A stretch of DNA of 11,465 nt from the UHGV virus genome UHGV-0140594; one strand, written 5' to 3'. Position numbers and translations under genes: made by a program. Position 1 is the stretch's first letter. Each line of letters starts with the position of its first letter. This DNA comes from a virus. This document shows, piece after piece, positions 1,143-11,465 of the stretch. The notes beneath the pieces were generated by a model. That model was not told the DNA's origin, did not search any database, and saw nothing but the letters and a program-made list of their open reading frames with translations.

Positions 1143-1349
1143 ATGGATCTTTTGGAGGCGTCGGCACAGCTGGAACGCATTGAGTTATTGGCCAAAATTG
1201 CCCATGTTTACGAAAGTAACCAGAGAGAAAAAACAATCGCTTTGGCCTGGATTGGAGAGCTTGCGGGAGAGGTTCGCGAAATAGTTAAAAAGGAAGGGCA
1301 ACGCCCCCAGAATGGGGGCATTTCAGGCGGCGGGAGTCGCTTTCAGTAG
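1143..1349 (+). CDS. Small hypothetical protein (68 aa) preceded by the SOS box; possible Tum-like antirepressor or moron (function unknown)
   Basis: ATG at 1143 with GGGGG Shine-Dalgarno 4 nt upstream (tgtgggggctaaATG). Predicted helical N-terminal part and Gly-rich tail (GGISGGGSRFQ). Its 3' end overlaps the 3' end of the convergent ogr-like gene by 27 nt. Confidence 0.45.
   Translation: MDLLEASAQLERIELLAKIAHVYESNQREKTIALAWIGELAGEVREIVKKEGQRPQNGGISGGGSRFQ
1303..1319. terminator. GC-rich hairpin GCCCCCA-GAA-TGGGGGC at the convergent gene ends (weak terminator candidate)
   Basis: Perfect 7-bp stem with 3-nt loop, immediately past the ogr-like stop on the minus strand. U-tracts are poor on both strands (AUUUC on plus; U5 lies 11 nt away on minus). 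Confidence 0.3.
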
Positions 1350-1592
1350 GTCTAATGCCATCTGGCGCTGATCGGGTGAAAGTGCATTCAGTATTTTTTG
1401 CACCATCGCATCACCCGTTTTAGCGCTGGGGCTGAGAGTGTGGGAGAACGTCAGATTCATAACAAACGTGTGGCCACACTCAACATCTGAACAGGCACAG
1501 TAAATATCGGCAATCTGCCGGTGCTTCCTGTTTGTTTTACGAATAACAGCCTTTGAGCCGCATTCCGGGCATTCGATTTTCAGAACTCGCAT
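1323..1592 (-). CDS. ogr: Ogr/Delta/B-family zinc-finger late-gene transcription activator
   Basis: MRVLKIECPECG...CACSDVEC gives C-x2-C-x22-C-x4-C, the zinc-finger spacing of P2 Ogr / 186 B / P4 Delta. ATG at 1592 has GGAG 8 nt upstream. The ORF track extends it to an ATG at 1646 that overlaps the portal stop (ATGA); 1592 is preferred because the family places the first Cys within about 8 residues of the N-terminus. Confidence 0.8.
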   Translation of the reverse strand: MRVLKIECPECGSKAVIRKTNRKHRQIADIYCACSDVECGHTFVMNLTFSHTLSPSAKTGDAMVQKILNALSPDQRQMALDLLKATPAA

Positions 1593-1642
1593 ATTCCATG
1601 CTCCAGCTGTTAAATGATGCCTGGATTTTAGCCTCTTTCGCC

Positions 1643-2704
1643 TCATGCCGCACCCTTATCCGTTGATTCTGTGTAACTTAAATCAAAGTTAAGGTGTAGC
1701 CTTTCCGGTATTTCAGGATCGTTGTTAACGGCCAGCATGAAACGGCGCTGGATGGGGGCAATTTCGCTTTTCTTGTAAATGCGTTCAGCCTTTTCAACAT
1801 CCCCCAGTCCGGCAGTGTTCTGCGGGCCAATACCGGCGAGGCCGGCAGGGAAACGGTGCGCGTTCAGAATGTCCTGGGCGCTGATGTTTTTGATGTTGGC
1901 AAATTCATCCTTCGCGGAAATATCCCCCATTTCAATGAATTTGATGGCGTCGCCGTCTCCACCGGGAATGTTTACAAGGATGGTGGAGAAGTTACCGATC
2001 CCTTTGCTGTCACGCAGCTGCTGTTCAATTTCTTCCTCCATTTCGTCCGTCATGCTGGGATCGCGAGTATAAAGAATACCGCCTGTGTGCGCACCGTTGT
2101 GGTAATAGCGGCGTCGGAAAATGACCGCTTCACTGTTAAGTAACGCGGAATGCACACCGCCGATGTAGTCCGGCAGTCCGTAGATATGCTGTTGTGGGTC
2201 ATACATTTTGATGAAGATAATATCTTCTTCTGGCCATACCTGCGGTTCTCCTTCCTGTAACACCACGTAGTCACCGGGCTTATCCAGGGCGTTATCTCTG
2301 ACTTTGCGGCGGCGAATATACAGACCGGGCAAGGGTTCAAGTGCGATCACGTCGCCCCAGCCGTTACGAATTTTGGCAATCGCAATATCCCCAAAGGTTA
2401 TATAGTCAAACGCTGCCGCTTCCAGCTGGTCGTGAATAAGCCCGCCCCCCAGGTAGTCTGAAACAATCATGTTTTTGCGGGCGTGAATGATGCCGCCGTG
2501 CTGACCGTTAAGATTAATCAGCTGTGCGAGTGCCAGCCGGTCAATCGGCTGGGTGAAGTGATCGGCGGCATTGTCGTACCAGATATCACGGTAATCTGTG
2601 CCGGTAGTCAGAACCGGTTCAGGTTTGCCGAATGTGATAATGCTCATCTTTTTTGATTTGTCGCCGCGCTGGTCGCGCTTAACAAAGCGTTTCTTTTTAC
2701 TCAT
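1643..2704 (-). CDS. Q: Portal protein (P2 gpQ-like)
   Basis: 353 aa, directly downstream of the terminase ATPase gene on the same strand with an ATGA stop/start overlap at 2701-2704; AAGGAAAGAGG ribosome-binding site upstream. Size and position match P2 Q; sequence similarity is recalled, not computed. Confidence 0.8.
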   Translation of the reverse strand: MSKKKRFVKRDQRGDKSKKMSIITFGKPEPVLTTGTDYRDIWYDNAADHFTQPIDRLALAQLINLNGQHGGIIHARKNMIVSDYLGGGLIHDQLEAAAFDYITFGDIAIAKIRNGWGDVIALEPLPGLYIRRRKVRDNALDKPGDYVVLQEGEPQVWPEEDIIFIKMYDPQQHIYGLPDYIGGVHSALLNSEAVIFRRRYYHNGAHTGGILYTRDPSMTDEMEEEIEQQLRDSKGIGNFSTILVNIPGGDGDAIKFIEMGDISAKDEFANIKNISAQDILNAHRFPAGLAGIGPQNTAGLGDVEKAERIYKKSEIAPIQRRFMLAVNNDPEIPERLHLNFDLSYTESTDKGAA

Positions 2705-4239
2705 GCTGCCTCTTTCCTTACACCCCAGCGGGATTTAGGTTTGTTTTCATAGTTAAGGGGTTCGTTATGCAGACCGTGGGTAATCGCCCAGAACGCCTCC
2801 GCGTGGCCAGTATCCTGGCTGCGGTCAGCGACAAACGTCATGGCGTTGCCGCTTTGTGTGGTGGTTCGGCGCACAGACATAAAGCTGGCCGCGATCTCTT
2901 TCAGGTTTTTATCCCACTCAATACGTTGGCTTTCCACCACGTCCACCGCTTTCAGCACCAGTTGATTTTTGGTGTTCAGGTCGTAACGAATAGGGACGGC
3001 CACGCGCATGGCAAAATGCTGAATGTTGTCAAAAACACCCTGGCCAATGCCGGTAACGTCTACTCCCAGATAAGTGAAGTTGTATTTTTTGAACAACTGC
3101 TCGATCTGTTTTGCCTGATACCGGAAGTTCATGCCTTTCCAGTAAATCACCTTCAGAACGCGGAACTTCTCCACGGCGAGCATCGGCGGGGCGATGATGA
3201 CAAAACAAGACAAATCACCGCTGCGAGCCGGGTCAAAGCCGCCCCAAACTGGCCTGTCACCGAATGGCCGCGCTGCATCAGGGTTGTGATCCTGCCAGGT
3301 GTCGATTTCAACGCCGCAGGCTTCCAGGTCAGAAAAGCTGAAAACGGAATCTTTGCTGTCAACGAACACGCACATATAGAGCATGTTAAAAGTGGCGTCG
3401 TTGTAGCGGTTGCGAAGTTTCTCGATGTTCGCCAGGTTGAAACCGCCCGCAATGGCATCTTCCATCGTAATGACGTAGCGCCATTGCCCATCCGGGCAGA
3501 GTCGCCCGCCGTCACGCATGTCGTTAAAGGACGGAAACTTAATGGCCGCACGTTTTTTACTGCCCTGTTTCCACTCATCGCCCGTCCAGAACGGGTAAGC
3601 CTGGTGCGTTTTTGCCGATGGCGTTGAAAAATAGGTGGTGCGCCACTTGTCATGTGTGGCCATTGCGCTGGCCACTTCGTTAAGTTTTGCAAAGTTTGGC
3701 ACCCAGAAATATTCGTCACAGTACAGGTGGCCACTGTAGGACTGGGCGGTGTTTTTGTTGGTGGAGAGAAAACGCAGTTCTGCGCCGTTGCTTAAGCGGA
3801 TCGGGTTGCCGGTTAGCGTAATACCGAAATACTGCTCTGCAATATTCACGATGTAAGACCGGAACACTTCAGCCTGTGCCTTTGACGCTGACAGAAAGAT
3901 TTGCGGATCGCCGGTCATCACCGCGTTTTCAAACGCTTCAAACGCAAAATACCAGGTCGCACCGATCTGGCGGCTTTTCAGGATGTTCCTGACAAGCTGG
4001 CCAATGTTATTGCGCAGGTGTTTCTGATATTCAAAAAGATGTTCTTCAGCCCATGCGTCAAAGTCCTCCTGCGTCAGCGACGTAATATCGTTTTTCTTGT
4101 ATTTCCGTTTGCTGCGTGATTCGTCGTCATTGTTGTCCCGCGCAGCTGCTTGCCCGGAACTCTGACCGCTGGCCATTTTCTCTTTGTGTTTATTACTCTG
4201 CGCACGCAGTTTCGTGGCATGAGCAATGAGCATGTCCAT
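2701..4239 (-). CDS. P: Terminase large (ATPase) subunit, gpP-like, main body; N-terminal domain is encoded upstream in another frame
   Basis: 512-aa ORF with a Walker-A-like KSRQIGAT motif and acidic motifs typical of terminase ATPase/nuclease; P2-like position upstream of the portal gene. Its reading frame stays open upstream of the annotated Met to 4281. Confidence 0.85.
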   Translation of the reverse strand: MDMLIAHATKLRAQSNKHKEKMASGQSSGQAAARDNNDDESRSKRKYKKNDITSLTQEDFDAWAEEHLFEYQKHLRNNIGQLVRNILKSRQIGATWYFAFEAFENAVMTGDPQIFLSASKAQAEVFRSYIVNIAEQYFGITLTGNPIRLSNGAELRFLSTNKNTAQSYSGHLYCDEYFWVPNFAKLNEVASAMATHDKWRTTYFSTPSAKTHQAYPFWTGDEWKQGSKKRAAIKFPSFNDMRDGGRLCPDGQWRYVITMEDAIAGGFNLANIEKLRNRYNDATFNMLYMCVFVDSKDSVFSFSDLEACGVEIDTWQDHNPDAARPFGDRPVWGGFDPARSGDLSCFVIIAPPMLAVEKFRVLKVIYWKGMNFRYQAKQIEQLFKKYNFTYLGVDVTGIGQGVFDNIQHFAMRVAVPIRYDLNTKNQLVLKAVDVVESQRIEWDKNLKEIAASFMSVRRTTTQSGNAMTFVADRSQDTGHAEAFWAITHGLHNEPLNYENKPKSRWGVRKEAA

Positions 4240-4244
4240 TTCTT

Positions 4245-4439
4245 TCAGGTCGAGATCGGTTTTGTTATCGCGGCTGTGCTTTCAAAACTGAGCAAATCCG
4301 CCCAGCTGTATTTCTCCGCCCAGTAGTAAACGATCCGCGCATTCGGCAGATTTAATTCAGATGCGATTTCCTTTGGCGTATAGCGGCGCAGATAAAGTGC
4401 GCGAACAACGCCTTTTAATTCTTCAGAGTATTTAGCCAT
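4245..4439 (-). CDS. P: Terminase large subunit N-terminal helix-turn-helix segment (gpP N-terminal-like), in a different frame from the ATPase body
   Basis: 64-aa ORF ...VVRALYLRRYTPKEIASELNLPNARIVYYWAEKYSW... resembles the N-terminal DNA-binding domain of gpP-type terminases. It ends at TGA 4245-4247, only 5 nt before the Met of the 512-aa ORF, and the two frames overlap open across 4248-4281. Confidence 0.6.
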   Translation of the reverse strand: MAKYSEELKGVVRALYLRRYTPKEIASELNLPNARIVYYWAEKYSWADLLSFESTAAITKPIST

Positions 4440-4493
4440 GCGGATAATTATGCCGTGGCTGTGATGAAAAAACGGTGGTGTTAATTCGTGTCT

Positions 4494-4518
4494 GTTCGGT
4501 AAAGCGTTATAACCGAAC
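4494..4518. promoter_or_regulatory. Perfect inverted repeat GTTCGGT-N11-ACCGAAC in the divergent late promoter region; candidate activator binding site
   Basis: 7-bp perfect dyad centred near 4506 in the 161-bp gap between the leftward terminase-portal operon and the rightward scaffold-capsid operon, roughly 55 bp from plausible -10 elements on either side. The P2-type TGT-N12-ACA motif itself is absent. Confidence 0.4.
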
Positions 4519-4600
4519 TGTTCAGAATAAAGCGTAATGCGGTGGTGGTTTTATTTGGCAATAATTGGTTTGCAGCGTCAGGGAGTGGAACAGGGGGGAT

Positions 4601-5404
4601 ATGTCACATTTAAAAACTGACTGGCTGTGTGTTGCTACTGAAGGGGATACCGTTGATGGCAGGGTAATTAAACGGCAGTGGATCATTGATATGGGGGAAA
4701 CCTATGACTATAGCCACTATGTCGCTTTAATCTGGCCAGAACATGAGGATGATTGCGGGAATTTTGGTGAAGTGCTGGAAGCCACCTGGAATGATGGTGA
4801 AGATGGACTGGCACGGTTATATGTCAGCCTTTGCCCGAATATGCGTCTGATTTTCGCAAATCATGAAGATCAGCTTTTGTTCTTCTCCATTGAGCCGGAA
4901 GAAAACTGGCGCGGTAGCGGGCGTACTTACCTGAAAGGGCTGGCGGTAACAGATACACCTGCCAGCGTTGGCACCACACGGCTGCGCTTTAGTAGTCGGC
5001 GCAATAAATTAACAAAGCAGGGATATTACAGCTGTGTAATTTCCCGCGACGGAAAAATTAAACAGGAAGCAAGAATGAAGAACTGGCAGAAACTGTTTGG
5101 TATTAAGCCAAAGTTTGAAGATGAAACGCCGCAGGATAATCCTGCTCCGGATGAAGATAAATTACAGGCGCTTGCCAATGTGGTGAACGATCTGGAAGCG
5201 CGAGTGGCGAAAATTGAAACTCAACTGAATGACGTTCAGGGTGATGTTGACACAATTGCTGAAGTGGTGGATACGCAGGAATTTGCGGCAATTCGCGGTA
5301 ATGCAAAAGAAATCGTAACCCGCTTTAACGAACTGGGTAATAAAAACACCCGTACACCGGGGCGTACTATAAAAGATAAAGCCGGGAAATTTAATTTCCT
5401 GTAA
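4601..5404 (+). CDS. O: Capsid scaffolding protein (P2 gpO-like)
   Basis: EGDTVDGRVI and YLKGLAVTDTPAS correspond to conserved gpO motifs. ATG at 4601 is preceded by AGGGGGG; the ORF track start at 4565 is a TTG with no better ribosome-binding site. Confidence 0.85.
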   Translation: MSHLKTDWLCVATEGDTVDGRVIKRQWIIDMGETYDYSHYVALIWPEHEDDCGNFGEVLEATWNDGEDGLARLYVSLCPNMRLIFANHEDQLLFFSIEPEENWRGSGRTYLKGLAVTDTPASVGTTRLRFSSRRNKLTKQGYYSCVISRDGKIKQEARMKNWQKLFGIKPKFEDETPQDNPAPDEDKLQALANVVNDLEARVAKIETQLNDVQGDVDTIAEVVDTQEFAAIRGNAKEIVTRFNELGNKNTRTPGRTIKDKAGKFNFL

Positions 5405-7239: not shown

Positions 7240-7743
7240 GTGTGTAACTGCGCCGTGGAAACCGGCCAGTCCGCCTTTTTCGGGGGATTTATGTTTAGCG
7301 GAAAGCCGCTGGATTATCAGGATGAACCGCTGACCAATAACGGATTCTGGCCAGATCTGAATCTGAAGGATTTTCAAGCGCAGCGGTCACTACCGCCAGA
7401 TATTGACGCTGACACCATCAGCCAGGCGTTGCTTGCAGCGGTGGCGGAGGTGAATGCGGAACTGGAAAACGTGGAGTCCAGTTGGATAGCGAAAGGCTAC
7501 ACGCTGGCGGCAGAGGTACCAGGTGTAAAAATGGGCGGACTGAACAGCCTGTGCGCCCAGTATATGAAGGCCGTTTTTGCTAGGGCAAAAGCGGATCTGC
7601 TGGGGGAGTTCGCCACTATCGGGCGGCGCGATACTCATCCGGGACAGGAAAGTATGGAAACCCGAGCGGGGTTACTGGCTGAAGCATCGGTGGTGATCCG
7701 CCGTATGAAAGGGCTGAAACGGGCAACGGTGAAAAAAGTATGA
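7240..7743 (+). CDS. L: Head completion/stabilisation protein (P2 gpL-like)
   Basis: Position after the small terminase gene; size about 167 aa; F-W-P-D-L and NAELENV blocks. Start is uncertain: GTG at 7240 (GGAGGG 11 nt upstream) or ATG at 7291 (GGGGGA upstream). Confidence 0.65.
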   Translation: MCNCAVETGQSAFFGGFMFSGKPLDYQDEPLTNNGFWPDLNLKDFQAQRSLPPDIDADTISQALLAAVAEVNAELENVESSWIAKGYTLAAEVPGVKMGGLNSLCAQYMKAVFARAKADLLGEFATIGRRDTHPGQESMETRAGLLAEASVVIRRMKGLKRATVKKV

Positions 7744-8246
7744 GCCAGACGCAGATCCAAAGCCTGACCACATTTTTTAAAGATAACGTCCCGCCCCGTG
7801 CGATGCAGTCATTTGACAGTGTGCTGGATGAGATGAAGTTCATCCCTGCGGCGAAGGATTACGGGCTGGGACAATATCGCCAGGCGGTTATCCGATATGA
7901 CGCGGTTCTGAGCTGGGAGCGTTTCCCGTATCGCCTTTGCCCGCCGCAGTTGCTTATGTCCTTACTGGCTGCGTGGCTGGATGATGCTGACAGGGAACTA
8001 CTGGATGAAGTGGGGCTGAGTGAAGCTGAACCTGACTGGGATGTGTCGGTGGAGGATGAGGAAGTGGCCACTGTGGTGCTGACTGTTCCGATGGTAGAAG
8101 AACTGGTGATCAGGCAGGACGAAAACGGGGCTATTCCGTGGCGGGGTGAGCGCTGGTCACTGGTTGAGCCTGAAATCTGGACGGCACTGACCGCCAGTAT
8201 TTACAGCGTGGATGAGGCCGGTGCGCCGGTGGGGGATAGCGAATGA
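7740..8246 (+). CDS. Hypothetical acidic virion protein (168 aa); possible tail-completion (gpR-like) or head-tail joining protein
   Basis: ATGA overlap with the upstream stop suggests translational coupling; strongly acidic; position between head completion and the morphogenesis gene. The functional assignment is positional only. Confidence 0.5.
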   Translation: MSQTQIQSLTTFFKDNVPPRAMQSFDSVLDEMKFIPAAKDYGLGQYRQAVIRYDAVLSWERFPYRLCPPQLLMSLLAAWLDDADRELLDEVGLSEAEPDWDVSVEDEEVATVVLTVPMVEELVIRQDENGAIPWRGERWSLVEPEIWTALTASIYSVDEAGAPVGDSE

Positions 8247-8950
8247 TTGCCGGTGGCGAGCTGAATAAAAAACAGCTGGCCGAATTGCGCAAGGCACTGG
8301 CCAGCATGGAGCTGCCGCCGAGAAAACGGCAGCGTCTGATCTGGCGTCTGGCCAAATATGGCGTGATTGCTGCGGCAAAGCGGCATGTGCGCAATCAGGA
8401 ATCCCCGGATGGCCAGAAGTGGCCGGGACGTAAGACAAAACGCAAAGGGAAGATGCTGCGCAACCTGCCAAAGCTGCTGCATATCCGTGAAATGCCAGAA
8501 ATTCAGGCTGTGCGGATCTATTTACAGGGCGGTGGATACCGGAACGGGGAAGCGCCGGTACCAGCCGGAACGGTGGGGTACGCGCAACAAAACGGAATGC
8601 GCGTAAAGGTCAGCCGCAGTAATCAGCCACGGAAGGCAGAGGCCGGGAAAATGGCGACGCCTGCCCAGGCCAAAAAATTACGGGCGCTGGGGTACCGGGT
8701 GAAAACCGGTAAGAGATGGAAAAAGCCCACACAGGGCGAAATCACCAAAACGATGCCATACAGCCAGGCGGGGCTGCTGATTCGAAAACTCAGTAATAAA
8801 GCCGTGAAAACCAGCAGGACAGTGGATCTTCCTGCTCGTGTGTTTCTGGGCATGAATGATGATGAATTTGACAAGGCGCTGGCGCGTCAGCTTCAGGCCA
8901 TAGGTTTTGGCTGGGATGTTAAGGCGCAGGATATTAAGGGGAAAGCATGA
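8243..8950 (+). CDS. Phage virion morphogenesis protein (P2 gpS / Mu G family) with an extra basic internal segment
   Basis: Contains the family-typical QESPDGQKW and ARVFLGMNDDE blocks; ATGA overlap upstream and GGGGGA ribosome-binding site. At 235 aa it is about 80 aa longer than typical members, the extra part being Lys/Arg-rich. Confidence 0.65.
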   Translation: MIAGGELNKKQLAELRKALASMELPPRKRQRLIWRLAKYGVIAAAKRHVRNQESPDGQKWPGRKTKRKGKMLRNLPKLLHIREMPEIQAVRIYLQGGGYRNGEAPVPAGTVGYAQQNGMRVKVSRSNQPRKAEAGKMATPAQAKKLRALGYRVKTGKRWKKPTQGEITKTMPYSQAGLLIRKLSNKAVKTSRTVDLPARVFLGMNDDEFDKALARQLQAIGFGWDVKAQDIKGKA

Positions 8951-10074
8951 CCTGGCCAATTGTGACGGTAAACCAGGTAAACCAGCTGATGGGCGAAACC
9001 AATGAGGTGGAACGCACACTGCTGTTTATCGGTACGGGTACCAAAAATGTGGGGAAAACGCTGGCGGTGAATGCCCAGAGTGATTTTGATTCACTGCTGG
9101 GCGAGGAAGCCAGCCCGCTCAAAAATGATGTTCTGGCTGCGCTGGCGAACGCTGGCCAGAACTGGTGGGGGTTCATTCACGTTCTGCCAGCTGACGCGGA
9201 GGCAGATGCCTGGGTGAAAGCGGTTCTGGCCGCGCAGGTGGTGTGCTCTGTGGAAGGCGTGGTGCTGTCTGACGATGTGACCGCTAAAGCGCAGGTAAAT
9301 CAGGCCGTGACGTTACGATCCACCCTGATTTCAAAGTATGGCCGCTGGGTGTGGTTTATCCTGGCCGCGCAGGGAATGCAGGACGAAGAAGCCCAGGCGG
9401 ATTATCTGGTACGCATGGCCACCCTTCAGGATGGCATTGCAGAAAAGGCAGTGCAGCTGGTTCCCCGCCTGTGGGGAAATGAACCGGGCGTGCTGGCTGG
9501 TCGCCTTTGTAGCCGTGCGGTAACCATTGCTGACAGTCCGGCGCGGGTTAAAACCGGTGCTCTGATGAATCTGGGCAGTGATGAGATGCCGGTTGATGGT
9601 ACCGGAGAAGTGCTGGAACTGGCCACACTTCAGGCGCTTGAAGCACAGCGTTTCAGTGTGCCGATGTGGTATCCGGATTATGACGGTTTTTACTGGGCAG
9701 ATGGCCGCACGCTGGATGTTGAGGGCGGCGATTATCAGTCGATTGAAACCCTGCGCGTTGCGGATAAAGCTGCCCGCCGTGTTCGTCTGCTGGCTATCAG
9801 CAAAATCGCGGATCGCTCGCTGAACAGCACGCCGGGAAGTATCGCCGCACATCAGACATTGTTTGCCCGTCCATTGCGTGAAATGTCCACTGCGGCCAGC
9901 ATTAACGGTGTGTCATTTCCGGGTGAAGTGAAGCCGCCGCAGGATGGTGATGTGACCATTGTCTGGAAAAACAAAAAGGCGGTGGATATTTACATTGTGG
10001 TGCGCACCTGGGAAGTGCCGCTGCAAATCACCATCAGTCTGTTACTGGATGCGAGTCTGGAGGCCACAGCATGA
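8947..10074 (+). CDS. Structural protein of unknown family (375 aa); tail sheath-like candidate
   Basis: ATGA-coupled to the upstream gene, AAGGGGAAAG ribosome-binding site. The N-terminal beta-rich segment and the internal RLWGNEPG block resemble the WGxRT region of contractile sheath proteins. It is followed by a tube-sized protein. No P2 counterpart at this position. Confidence 0.4.
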   Translation: MTWPIVTVNQVNQLMGETNEVERTLLFIGTGTKNVGKTLAVNAQSDFDSLLGEEASPLKNDVLAALANAGQNWWGFIHVLPADAEADAWVKAVLAAQVVCSVEGVVLSDDVTAKAQVNQAVTLRSTLISKYGRWVWFILAAQGMQDEEAQADYLVRMATLQDGIAEKAVQLVPRLWGNEPGVLAGRLCSRAVTIADSPARVKTGALMNLGSDEMPVDGTGEVLELATLQALEAQRFSVPMWYPDYDGFYWADGRTLDVEGGDYQSIETLRVADKAARRVRLLAISKIADRSLNSTPGSIAAHQTLFARPLREMSTAASINGVSFPGEVKPPQDGDVTIVWKNKKAVDIYIVVRTWEVPLQITISLLLDASLEATA

Positions 10075-10526
10075 CCAAACGTATTTCGGGTATGTCGTTT
10101 GACACCTATATGGACGGCGATCTGATCCATATCGAGAAAATCACGCTCGATATTACGGATAACAGCGCTGCCGCCCAGACGCGTGGCGTCCCTGATGGGT
10201 ATGTGGATGGCGATGTTGCCGCTGAGGGGGAAATTGAAGTCAGTTCAAAAACACTTCAGGTGCTGACAGCCAAAGCCCGTGCAGCGGGTTCATTGCGTGG
10301 GCTTCCACCACTTGATTTTCTTTTCTATGCCAAAGCCAGTAGCGAAGAAATGAAGGTGGAGACGTTCGGCAATAAATTGCAGGTCAGCAACCTGCTGGAT
10401 ATTGATCCGAAAGGTGGCGGTGTGACCACGCACAAAATCAAATATTTCGTGACCAGTCCGAAATTCGTCAACATCAACGGTGTGCCGTATCTGGAAGCGG
10501 AAGCCACAGAAAACTTGATCGGATAA
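10071..10526 (+). CDS. Structural protein of unknown family (151 aa); tail tube-like candidate
   Basis: ATGA-coupled to the 375-aa gene, GGAGG ribosome-binding site; size and position are consistent with a tube protein partnered to a sheath. No diagnostic motif recognised. Confidence 0.3.
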   Translation: MTKRISGMSFDTYMDGDLIHIEKITLDITDNSAAAQTRGVPDGYVDGDVAAEGEIEVSSKTLQVLTAKARAAGSLRGLPPLDFLFYAKASSEEMKVETFGNKLQVSNLLDIDPKGGGVTTHKIKYFVTSPKFVNINGVPYLEAEATENLIG

Positions 10527-11166: not shown

Positions 11167-11465
11167 TGAGCAGCGGGCAGTGGCTGGTTGTGGTGGCGCT
11201 GGCGTTTGTCTGGGGCTGGCTAACCGCTGACTGGCGGCGTGATAGCTTAGAGCTGGCAATCAATACAGCGGCGCAGGTGGCCGGTAATGAATCGCGAAAA
11301 GCAATGCAGGGTATTGCCAGTGATTCGGCCAGAGCGCTGGAAGATAAACTGGAGGCGTTAAAAAATGTGGCACCGCGAGAGATACGCACGGAAATACTTA
11401 AGCCCGTTTTTACTAAGGAAGGTGCGAATAAGCAGGTCATTTCTTCCCAAGCTGACTCGCTGATT
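11166..11465 (+). CDS. Putative i-spanin (Rz-like), 3'-truncated by the window edge
   Basis: ATG at 11166 overlaps the endolysin stop (TGATG). N-terminal transmembrane segment WLVVVALAFVWGWL followed by a charged helical region; open to the window end. Not in the ORF track because no stop is reached. Confidence 0.45.
   Translation, partial: MSSGQWLVVVALAFVWGWLTADWRRDSLELAINTAAQVAGNESRKAMQGIASDSARALEDKLEALKNVAPREIRTEILKPVFTKEGANKQVISSQADSLI

Follow-up and report, generated by a model that had tools for sequence, protein, structure and literature searches.

A 37-bp deletion probably inactivates the terminase large subunit gene of an ESSI-2-like Escherichia coli prophage

The terL locus and its relatives

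The stretch of DNA analysed here (11,465 nt, hereafter the window) carries a terminase large subunit gene (terL) that is split on the minus strand into two open reading frames (ORFs) in different frames, as the initial annotation had reported: one of 64 aa at 4245..4439 and one of 512 aa at 2701..4239. The 64-aa ORF is an N-terminal terL remnant, recognized by its translation, by Pfam PF06056 and by alignment to the intact protein. It consists of native residues 1-55, which form part of a Terminase_5/gpP-type HTH-like domain, followed by nine out-of-frame residues (AAITKPIST); its last sense codon lies at 4248-4250 and its TGA stop at 4245-4247. Only 5 nt past this stop is the ATG of the 512-aa ORF (TGAAAGAAATG), which by translation and Pfam represents intact TerL residues 80-591 with the ATPase (Terminase_6N) and nuclease (Terminase_6C) domains. 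This ORF had no substitutions compared with E. coli 23CRST047, and its stop overlaps the start of the portal gene. Translation and alignment showed that the frame of the body is also open upstream of its first ATG (4240..4281, minus strand); from 4275 it reads native residues S68-E79, which are untranslated unless a ribosome enters that frame. The two frames are both open across 4248-4281, as had been claimed, the body frame up to 4281 and the 64-aa frame down to 4248.

Pfam supported the assignment of a gpP-type N-terminal domain to the 64-aa ORF and of an ATPase/nuclease body to the 512-aa ORF. PF06056 (Terminase_5) matched the former with E = 4.9e-10 and 39.6 bits, against a cut-off of 20.3, and Terminase_6N (E = 1.3e-53) and Terminase_6C (E = 7e-28) matched the latter. 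The Terminase_5 match was clipped: it covered residues 13-53 in the 64-aa ORF compared with 13-63 in the intact protein, and it ended at position 46 of the 58-position profile, which the intact protein matches up to position 56. A single ORF of about 590 aa with all three domains was absent from the window, in which the coding capacity is divided into 64 + 512 aa. When aligned to the intact protein, the two ORFs covered residues 1-55 and 80-591; E56-A67 are missing and residues 68-79 lie outside the ORFs. The ORFs are the halves of one gene, continuous (591 aa) in relatives, rather than a chance arrangement, and the terL of the window is a disrupted member of the P2 gpP-type large terminases, not a functional one. 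Among the hallmark genes of the P2 family is gpP (PMC13100340).

The window belongs to an E. coli prophage of the P2 family that resembles ESSI-2 (Peduoviridae, Quadragintavirus), and its sequence was assembled from a metagenome. Intact E. coli prophages aligned to it at ~99.96% identity, and Escherichia phage ESSI2_ev129 (Peduoviridae, Quadragintavirus) at ~97%. The same prophage with an intact terminase (WP_040080379.1, 591 aa) is present in E. coli 23CRST047, 1919D3, Z142-3 and CUWW10. Across terL, nucleotide identity with the window was 97.5-100% for ESSI2_ev129, ev040, ev015 and the E. coli prophages, and 82% for Cronobacter phage ESSI-2 (Quadragintavirus). The relatives of the ESSI-2 group share with the window the Terminase_5, Terminase_6N and Terminase_6C domains and the gene neighbours, namely portal and Ogr/Delta genes downstream and a divergent gpO-gpN-gpM-gpL operon. 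However, their terL is one continuous coding sequence, whereas that of the window lacks nt 164-200 and is split.

The synteny of the head module, established from Pfam families of the genes called on the scaffold and from the RefSeq annotation of identical prophages, agrees with a gpP assignment. The portal gene (gpQ-like, 353 aa, PF04860; 1643..2704, minus strand) is adjacent to terL on the same strand, lies downstream of it and overlaps it. On the other side, a divergent intergenic region (4440..4600, delimited from the annotation of identical prophages) separates terL from the plus-strand operon for scaffold, major capsid, small terminase and head completion proteins, in O-N-M-L order; this region was untouched by the deletion described below and had no mismatches. 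The more distant P2 gpP-type terminases, found in the Peduovirus relatives P24B2 and phage 11W and in PSP3 (gp3, annotated as 'similar to P2 P'), had ~39-43% protein identity over residues 15-582. Their genes are intact and distant in sequence, with the single-frame architecture and head-gene synteny of the window's relatives.

Searches with the proteins themselves returned little. No match was obtained in the PDB by sequence search with the intact protein, or in NCBIfam for any of the three proteins. An AlphaFold model of the intact N-terminal 126 aa, taken from a homologue fragment (mean pLDDT 77), gave nothing significant in a Foldseek search of the PDB (best E = 2.3); the nominally top matches were small-terminase and HTH proteins, which are not usable as evidence.

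The deletion junction and its proposed consequence

Alignment to the 1776-nt, 591-aa terL showed that the window lacks 37 bp, nt 164-200, which correspond to codons 56-67 and one further base. In intact relatives whose sequence is otherwise the same, the missing segment, CAGAGGAAGCAATTGAACGCCGTTACCAGCTGCTGGC, stands as 37 additional bases at 4273-4277. The junction (4274..4276, minus strand), located by alignment and base-by-base comparison, is a single retained CAG of two direct repeats; the intact allele has one CAG at either end of the segment, and the exact breakpoint could lie anywhere within these 3 bases. When the 37 bp were re-inserted, no mismatches remained in terL, and the window differed from E. 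coli 23CRST047 at 4 positions of 11,416. The loss of 36+1 bases fully accounts for the change of frame. It also removes residues that coincide with a predicted helix (55-67, pLDDT about 77-85). No substitutions separate the remainder of terL from intact copies, and the lesion is therefore recent.

The 37 bp were kept in all 24 loci with an intact left boundary (22 from the boundary scan, together with L001 and L002), and 19 of them had a complete, uninterrupted 591-aa ORF. In comparison, the exact junction 25-mer had no matches in JGI metagenomes, GTDB genomes or IMG/VR; the intact boundary, scanned as a positive control, was found at 15 + 7 loci. Two ENA metagenome contigs carry the exact truncated product of 512 aa, compared with 182 for the intact protein.

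In the classical lacI-type deletions, segments between short direct repeats at quasi-palindromes are lost by slipped-strand mispairing. The window resembles them in that one CAG copy is retained, a 9-nt inverted repeat (TCAGTTTTG / CAAAACCGA) brackets the deleted segment and the segment ends in a palindrome, GCTGGCCAGC; this likeness is one of sequence context, and a 3-bp repeat could occur by chance. We suggest that replication slippage between the CAG repeats, within the segment bracketed by the inverted repeat, may have removed the 37 bp. With the 37 bp missing, translation from the native start leaves the frame after T55 and stops nine codons later, giving a 64-aa peptide in which the final helix predicted for the N-terminal domain is absent. 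For the body (residues 80-591) to be made, ribosomes would have to re-initiate, inefficiently, at the ATG that follows the stop by 5 nt, and the product would then lack the N-terminal domain. The prophage is most likely packaging-defective, although some activity might persist in a 512-aa protein made by re-initiation.

The deletion ends 11 nt upstream of an A4 run (TTTT on the plus strand, 4260..4263; terL on the minus strand), in which the initial annotation had placed the lesion. The run is present as described and also belongs to one arm of the 9-nt inverted repeat. One added A does fuse the frames as ...AITKTDLDLKEMDML..., giving a product of 579 aa rather than the 'about 578' claimed. 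This product is non-ancestral, as it lacks the 12 residues of the predicted helix (E56-A67) and has AAIT in place of SRDN. Moreover, the intact 591-aa relatives, which are otherwise identical across terL, carry the same AACAAAACC, so that the lesion does not lie in the A4 tract. The run is in its wild-type state (AAC AAA ACC, N71 K72 T73 in the intact gene) and had no part in the event. The restoration of the frame by an added A is a coincidence.

Alternative explanations

Both a pseudogene and a sequence error, which had been proposed at the outset, are still live options. We consider it quite likely that terL is a pseudogene, produced by a recent, microhomology-flanked 37-bp deletion in a decaying prophage and hence an ordinary inactivating mutation. 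Two IMG/VR loci, L012 and L013, resemble the window in having small frame-disrupting indels in an otherwise conserved terL. However, their lesions differ from that of the window in site and type: L012 has lost 1 nt in an A5 run near nt 1507, and L013 has a 29-bp tandem duplication near nt 835. The three lesions are independent events. With unrelated lesions present in the terL of other relatives, its sporadic inactivation is nothing out of the ordinary.

The main rival is an artefact of assembly or consensus, in which the real DNA is intact (591 aa); the 37 bp would have dropped out at some step of metagenome assembly, scaffolding or gap closing, or because a minority variant was chosen at a bubble. 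The source is a scaffold of the short-read metagenome style, and error-rich assemblies yield terL fragments elsewhere, for example on the contig of P0016. The absence of the junction from the scanned collections, which leaves no independent isolate carrying it, and the scarcity of its product relative to the intact protein would also agree with an artefact. However, at least two contigs have the deletion, namely the window and scaffold_257, and these are not identical: they differ in length and at one base (window 1024). It was therefore probably assembled at least twice, although the two contigs could derive from the same read set. The 3-bp homology at the breakpoint is also far shorter than any assembler k-mer; by the logic of de Bruijn assembly, a graph-based contig with this junction would require reads that include it. 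The window has no Ns and no other anomalies across its 11.4 kb. We regard an artefact as unlikely, with a modest share of the probability left to it.

It is very unlikely that the split gene is alive, with low-level or helper-dependent packaging provided by the 64-aa HTH fragment together with a 512-aa motor from re-initiation, or by a rare product of -1 slippage. If true, the window would demonstrate, as an experiment of nature, that in gpP the N-terminal domain need not be tethered to the motor.

Rescue of a full-length (579-aa) terminase by programmed or fortuitous -1 slippage on A_AAA_C is slightly less credible still. The slip site is within the region open in both frames, and the lysine tRNA on AAA could pair perfectly again after a -1 shift (A AAA). 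However, the site is not an X_XXY_YYZ heptamer. In its frame-0 context, A_ACA_AAA_C, re-pairing is open to the AAA codon alone, and the P-site codon ACA cannot do so. There is no hairpin 5-9 nt downstream, the first predicted stem being ~32 nt away. The RNA beyond the A4 run folded only slightly better than its shuffled versions (z = -1.86; 12 of 200 shuffles folded as well) and offers no convincing stimulator. The two-frame arrangement is conserved in no relative, and the slip product would lack the predicted helix of the N-terminal domain. Decoding by ribosomal slippage, one of the arrangements first considered, thus finds support neither in the sequence context nor in conservation.

A natural two-polypeptide terminase, with a separate HTH domain and motor that are possibly translationally coupled, is just as improbable as slippage. 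The short distance between stop and ATG would suit such coupling, and databases contain short Terminase_5-only proteins. However, these are contig-end partials or result from other, unrelated breaks, and none has this junction. The split also drops 12 native residues, adds 9 foreign ones and leaves residues 68-79 untranslated. This arrangement, which had also been proposed, is contradicted by the fused, single-frame gene: in 479 of 490 related phage records, tblastn recovered the whole protein in one piece (>= 80% coverage), and among the 30 records listed the match started at residues 1-20. A search with the N-terminal 79 aa as the query found no conserved stand-alone HTH gene and returned only short fragments and partials. 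A two-piece tblastn match in PSP3, taken up as a candidate natural split, was rejected, as it comprises an intact gp3 and a partial C-terminal duplicate, gp2.

That the A4 tract is a true or ancestral A5 shortened by one base, whether through homopolymer error or mutation, has next to no probability: although an added A joins both frames and a homopolymer frameshift does occur in the terL family (A5 to A4 in L012, at a different site), the alignment refutes it, since intact relatives read A4 in frame as N-K-T, the tract is A4 in 23 of 24 loci, including all 19 with the complete 591-aa ORF (the divergent L014 has A3), and the deletion upstream suffices for the frame change.

The IS5-like insertion and annotation of the prophage

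The prophage is interrupted a second time at 11416/11417, where an IS5-like (ISKpn26-family) element enters a small hypothetical gene downstream of the M15 endolysin. The contig ends inside the element, of which the terminal 49 nt are present (11417..11465, plus strand), identified by identity to reference IS copies. Copies in 1867 E. coli genomes matched all 49 nt exactly, and in the reference copies the ISKpn26-family transposase gene lies ~100 nt inward. As a second lesion in the same prophage, the insertion fits early decay.

We suggest that terL be annotated as a pseudogene that arose by a 37-bp deletion. Labels such as homopolymer frameshift, recoding site or two-subunit terminase should be avoided, and no A should be added to 'repair' the gene. 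Together, the deletion and the IS5-like insertion mark an otherwise intact copy of an ESSI-2-like prophage as probably unable to package DNA. This matters for the scoring of prophage viability in the source metagenome only, and little beyond correct annotation. It also carries a caution, in that a one-base edit at a nearby homopolymer may restore a frame and yet not locate the lesion.

The other end of the IS lies beyond the contig. Directly before the end that is present stands CTAA (11413-11416), and IS5-family elements prefer YTAR (CTAA) as their target.

A probable deletion in the large terminase gene

The gpP-type large terminase gene (terL) of this ESSI-2-like P2-family prophage is represented on the minus strand by two ORFs in different frames, a short one of 64 aa (4245..4439) and one of 512 aa (2701..4239). 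Since the frame of the 512-aa body has no stop upstream as far as 4281 and the stop of the short ORF occupies 4245-4247, the overlap at 4248-4281 is open in both frames, and a plus-strand TTTT lies within it at 4260-4263. Pfam assigned Terminase_5 (gpP-like N-terminus) to the short ORF and Terminase_6N (ATPase) and Terminase_6C (nuclease) to the long one. On all these points translation and Pfam agreed with the initial annotation, which had blamed a frameshift in the A4 run that TTTT represents.

Judged by alignment, the lesion is a 37-bp deletion. It is neither a homopolymer shift in the A4 run nor a recoding site, and the two ORFs are not a natural two-gene arrangement. A megablast search with window 2701-4500 (1800 bases) found matches in 10 phage records and 46 E. 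coli genomes. All full-length matches, including those of 100% identity, were broken into two pieces and extended over 1834-1839 bases, compared with 1800 in the query, and terL in the matched records is a single CDS of 1776 nt and 591 aa (for example, WP_040080379.1 of E. coli 1919D3 and YP_009877547.1 of Escherichia phage ESSI2_ev129; Peduoviridae, Quadragintavirus). Exactly 37 bases, CAGAGGAAGCAATTGAACGCCGTTACCAGCTGCTGGC, corresponding to nt 164-200 of intact terL, were missing from the window when it was aligned to the intact relatives. CAG stands at each end of this segment, and a single CAG is kept at 4274-4276. Restoring the 37 bases left only four mismatches to E. coli 23CRST047 in 11,416 positions (1827, 5298, 6240 and 8816), all of them outside terL.

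Because 37 is 36 + 1, the loss takes out codons E56-A67 and moves the frame by one base, so that the addition of any one base in the vicinity, for instance an A in the A4 run, puts the two halves back in frame. The repair proposed earlier, in which one A was added, does so, but its 579-aa product is without 12 native residues and has AAIT in place of the native SRDN. The run itself is not at fault: it is A4 in 23 of the 24 relatives examined and reads AAC AAA ACC (N71 K72 T73) in intact terL. The suggestion of a disrupted gpP-type terminase gene was sound, and terL in the window is probably a pseudogene, with the 37-bp deletion in place of the supposed homopolymer shift.

In the intact allele (locus L001), a 9-nt inverted repeat, TCAGTTTTG / CAAAACCGA, flanks the missing segment; its arms are 89% complementary (L001 1710-1718 and 1774-1782; about 4284-4292 and 4257-4265 in the window). 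The A4 run sits within the second arm, and a 10-bp palindrome, GCTGGCCAGC, ends the segment at the right breakpoint. Slipped-strand deletions classically arise where short direct repeats flank quasi-palindromes, and on such general grounds a slipped-strand event may have removed the 37-bp segment. The kind of event behind the split is already known.

Artefact, slippage and natural splitting as alternatives

The deletion is likely genuine, and there is a small chance that it is an artefact. The exact 512-aa product occurred on two ENA contigs, versus 182 with the intact 591-aa protein. One of the two (ERZ28588711 GIBS16-1_SAMN04436910_METAG-scaffold_257; 13,286 bp) aligns from its first base with the reverse complement of the window, with one differing base at 1024 (A in the scaffold; C in the window, as in E. 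coli relatives), and it reaches 1821 nt further at the gpA end. Owing to these differences, the deletion was probably assembled at least twice, and the window is probably the other of the two contigs. An exact scan of JGI metagenomes, GTDB genomes and IMG/VR found the junction 25-mer 0 times and the intact boundary in 22 loci. Against an artefact, an assembler could not be expected to make the join from so short an overlap (3 bp) unless some reads contained the junction.

Ribosomal slippage, also raised in the initial annotation, is unlikely to decode the split gene. The frame-0 context, A_ACA_AAA_C, has no X_XXY_YYZ heptamer, the nearest predicted stem begins about 32 nt downstream of the A4 run, folding there is little better than in shuffled sequence (z = -1.86), and a frameshift at this position is not required in any relative.

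The split is not a natural two-polypeptide arrangement, as tblastn with the intact protein matched 490 phage records (35-99% identity), and in 479 of them at least 80% of its length is covered within one place; among the matches listed, a single piece starts at residue 1-20 in 29 of 30. P2-like viruses have seven hallmark genes, of which gpP is one (PMC13100340). A two-piece match in Salmonella phage PSP3 (AY135486) was rejected as a natural split, being intact gp3 plus a partial duplicate, gp2. The latter is an additional gene (2013-2759; annotated 'similar to 186 W; similar to orf3') lying between the intact terminase gene and that of the portal. Its match is to the C-terminal region of the large terminase, and it appears to be a partial duplication.

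A search with the N-terminal 79 aa yielded nothing but short proteins, which were contig-end partials or fragments broken elsewhere, none sharing the deletion junction of the window; the gene calls on the contig of one of them look error-shredded. On an E. coli MAG contig (GCA_047243965.1, JBKTNL010000004.1), terL of the same prophage is in several small calls (94 aa Terminase_5, 109 aa Terminase_6C and others), which looks like an indel-rich assembly. The database protein 'terminase gpP N-terminus-related DNA-binding protein' derives from this contig.

Predicted consequences for the protein

The native start now yields residues 1-55 followed by nine foreign residues, and the Terminase_5 match (Pfam) is shortened to residues 13-53, compared with 13-63 in the intact protein. 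AlphaFold, run on a homologue fragment to model the intact N-terminal 126 residues (mean pLDDT 77), predicted helices at 6-17, 22-28, 35-43, 46-49, 55-67 and 74-112, and the predicted helix 55-67 coincides with the deleted residues. We found no solved structure or functional study of the gpP-type N-terminal domain. In the body frame, the first ATG comes 5 nt past the short-ORF stop (TGAAAGAAATG), and no good Shine-Dalgarno sequence for it was seen on reading the sequence; any 512-aa product would therefore need termination and re-initiation, and would be without the N-terminal domain. We infer that the deletion abolishes packaging.

Further lesions and neighbouring genes

The terminal 49 nt of the window (11417-11465) match the end of an IS5-like element of the ISKpn26 family at 100% identity. 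Of 5426 complete E. coli genomes, 1867 carry this end, as do thousands of plasmids. The element is inserted after CTAA (from 11413) in a hypothetical gene that follows the M15 endolysin and is orthologous to WP_040080372.1, and is a second lesion in the terL-deleted prophage. The sequence of the window stops inside the element, which is the probable reason that the contig ends there. Other terL lesions that disrupt the frame were found in two IMG/VR relatives, a 1-nt loss in an A5 run at about nt 1507 (CCAAAAATC to CCAAAATA; L012) and a 29-bp tandem duplication at about nt 835 (GCGCAATGGCCACACATGACAAGTGGC...; L013). It is ordinary for the terminase genes of prophages to be inactivated sporadically.

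The genes past the gpR-like one (7740-10526, plus strand), downstream of the P2-like head genes, include matches to DUF2586 (375 aa) and Phage_HP1_Orf24 (151 aa) and a 235-aa gene that matched no Pfam family. This phage group may have a tail module unlike that of P2. The start of the Ogr/Delta-like zinc-finger gene (1323-1646, minus strand) is annotated inconsistently: both the phage record and the ENA gene call have 89 aa, against 107 aa in RefSeq E. coli. The annotated start of the gpO-like scaffold gene also varies: as listed, the ORF in the window (4565-5404, plus strand) runs from a TTG and has 279 aa, whereas the E. coli annotation gives 267 aa and the ESSI2_ev129 record 237 aa.
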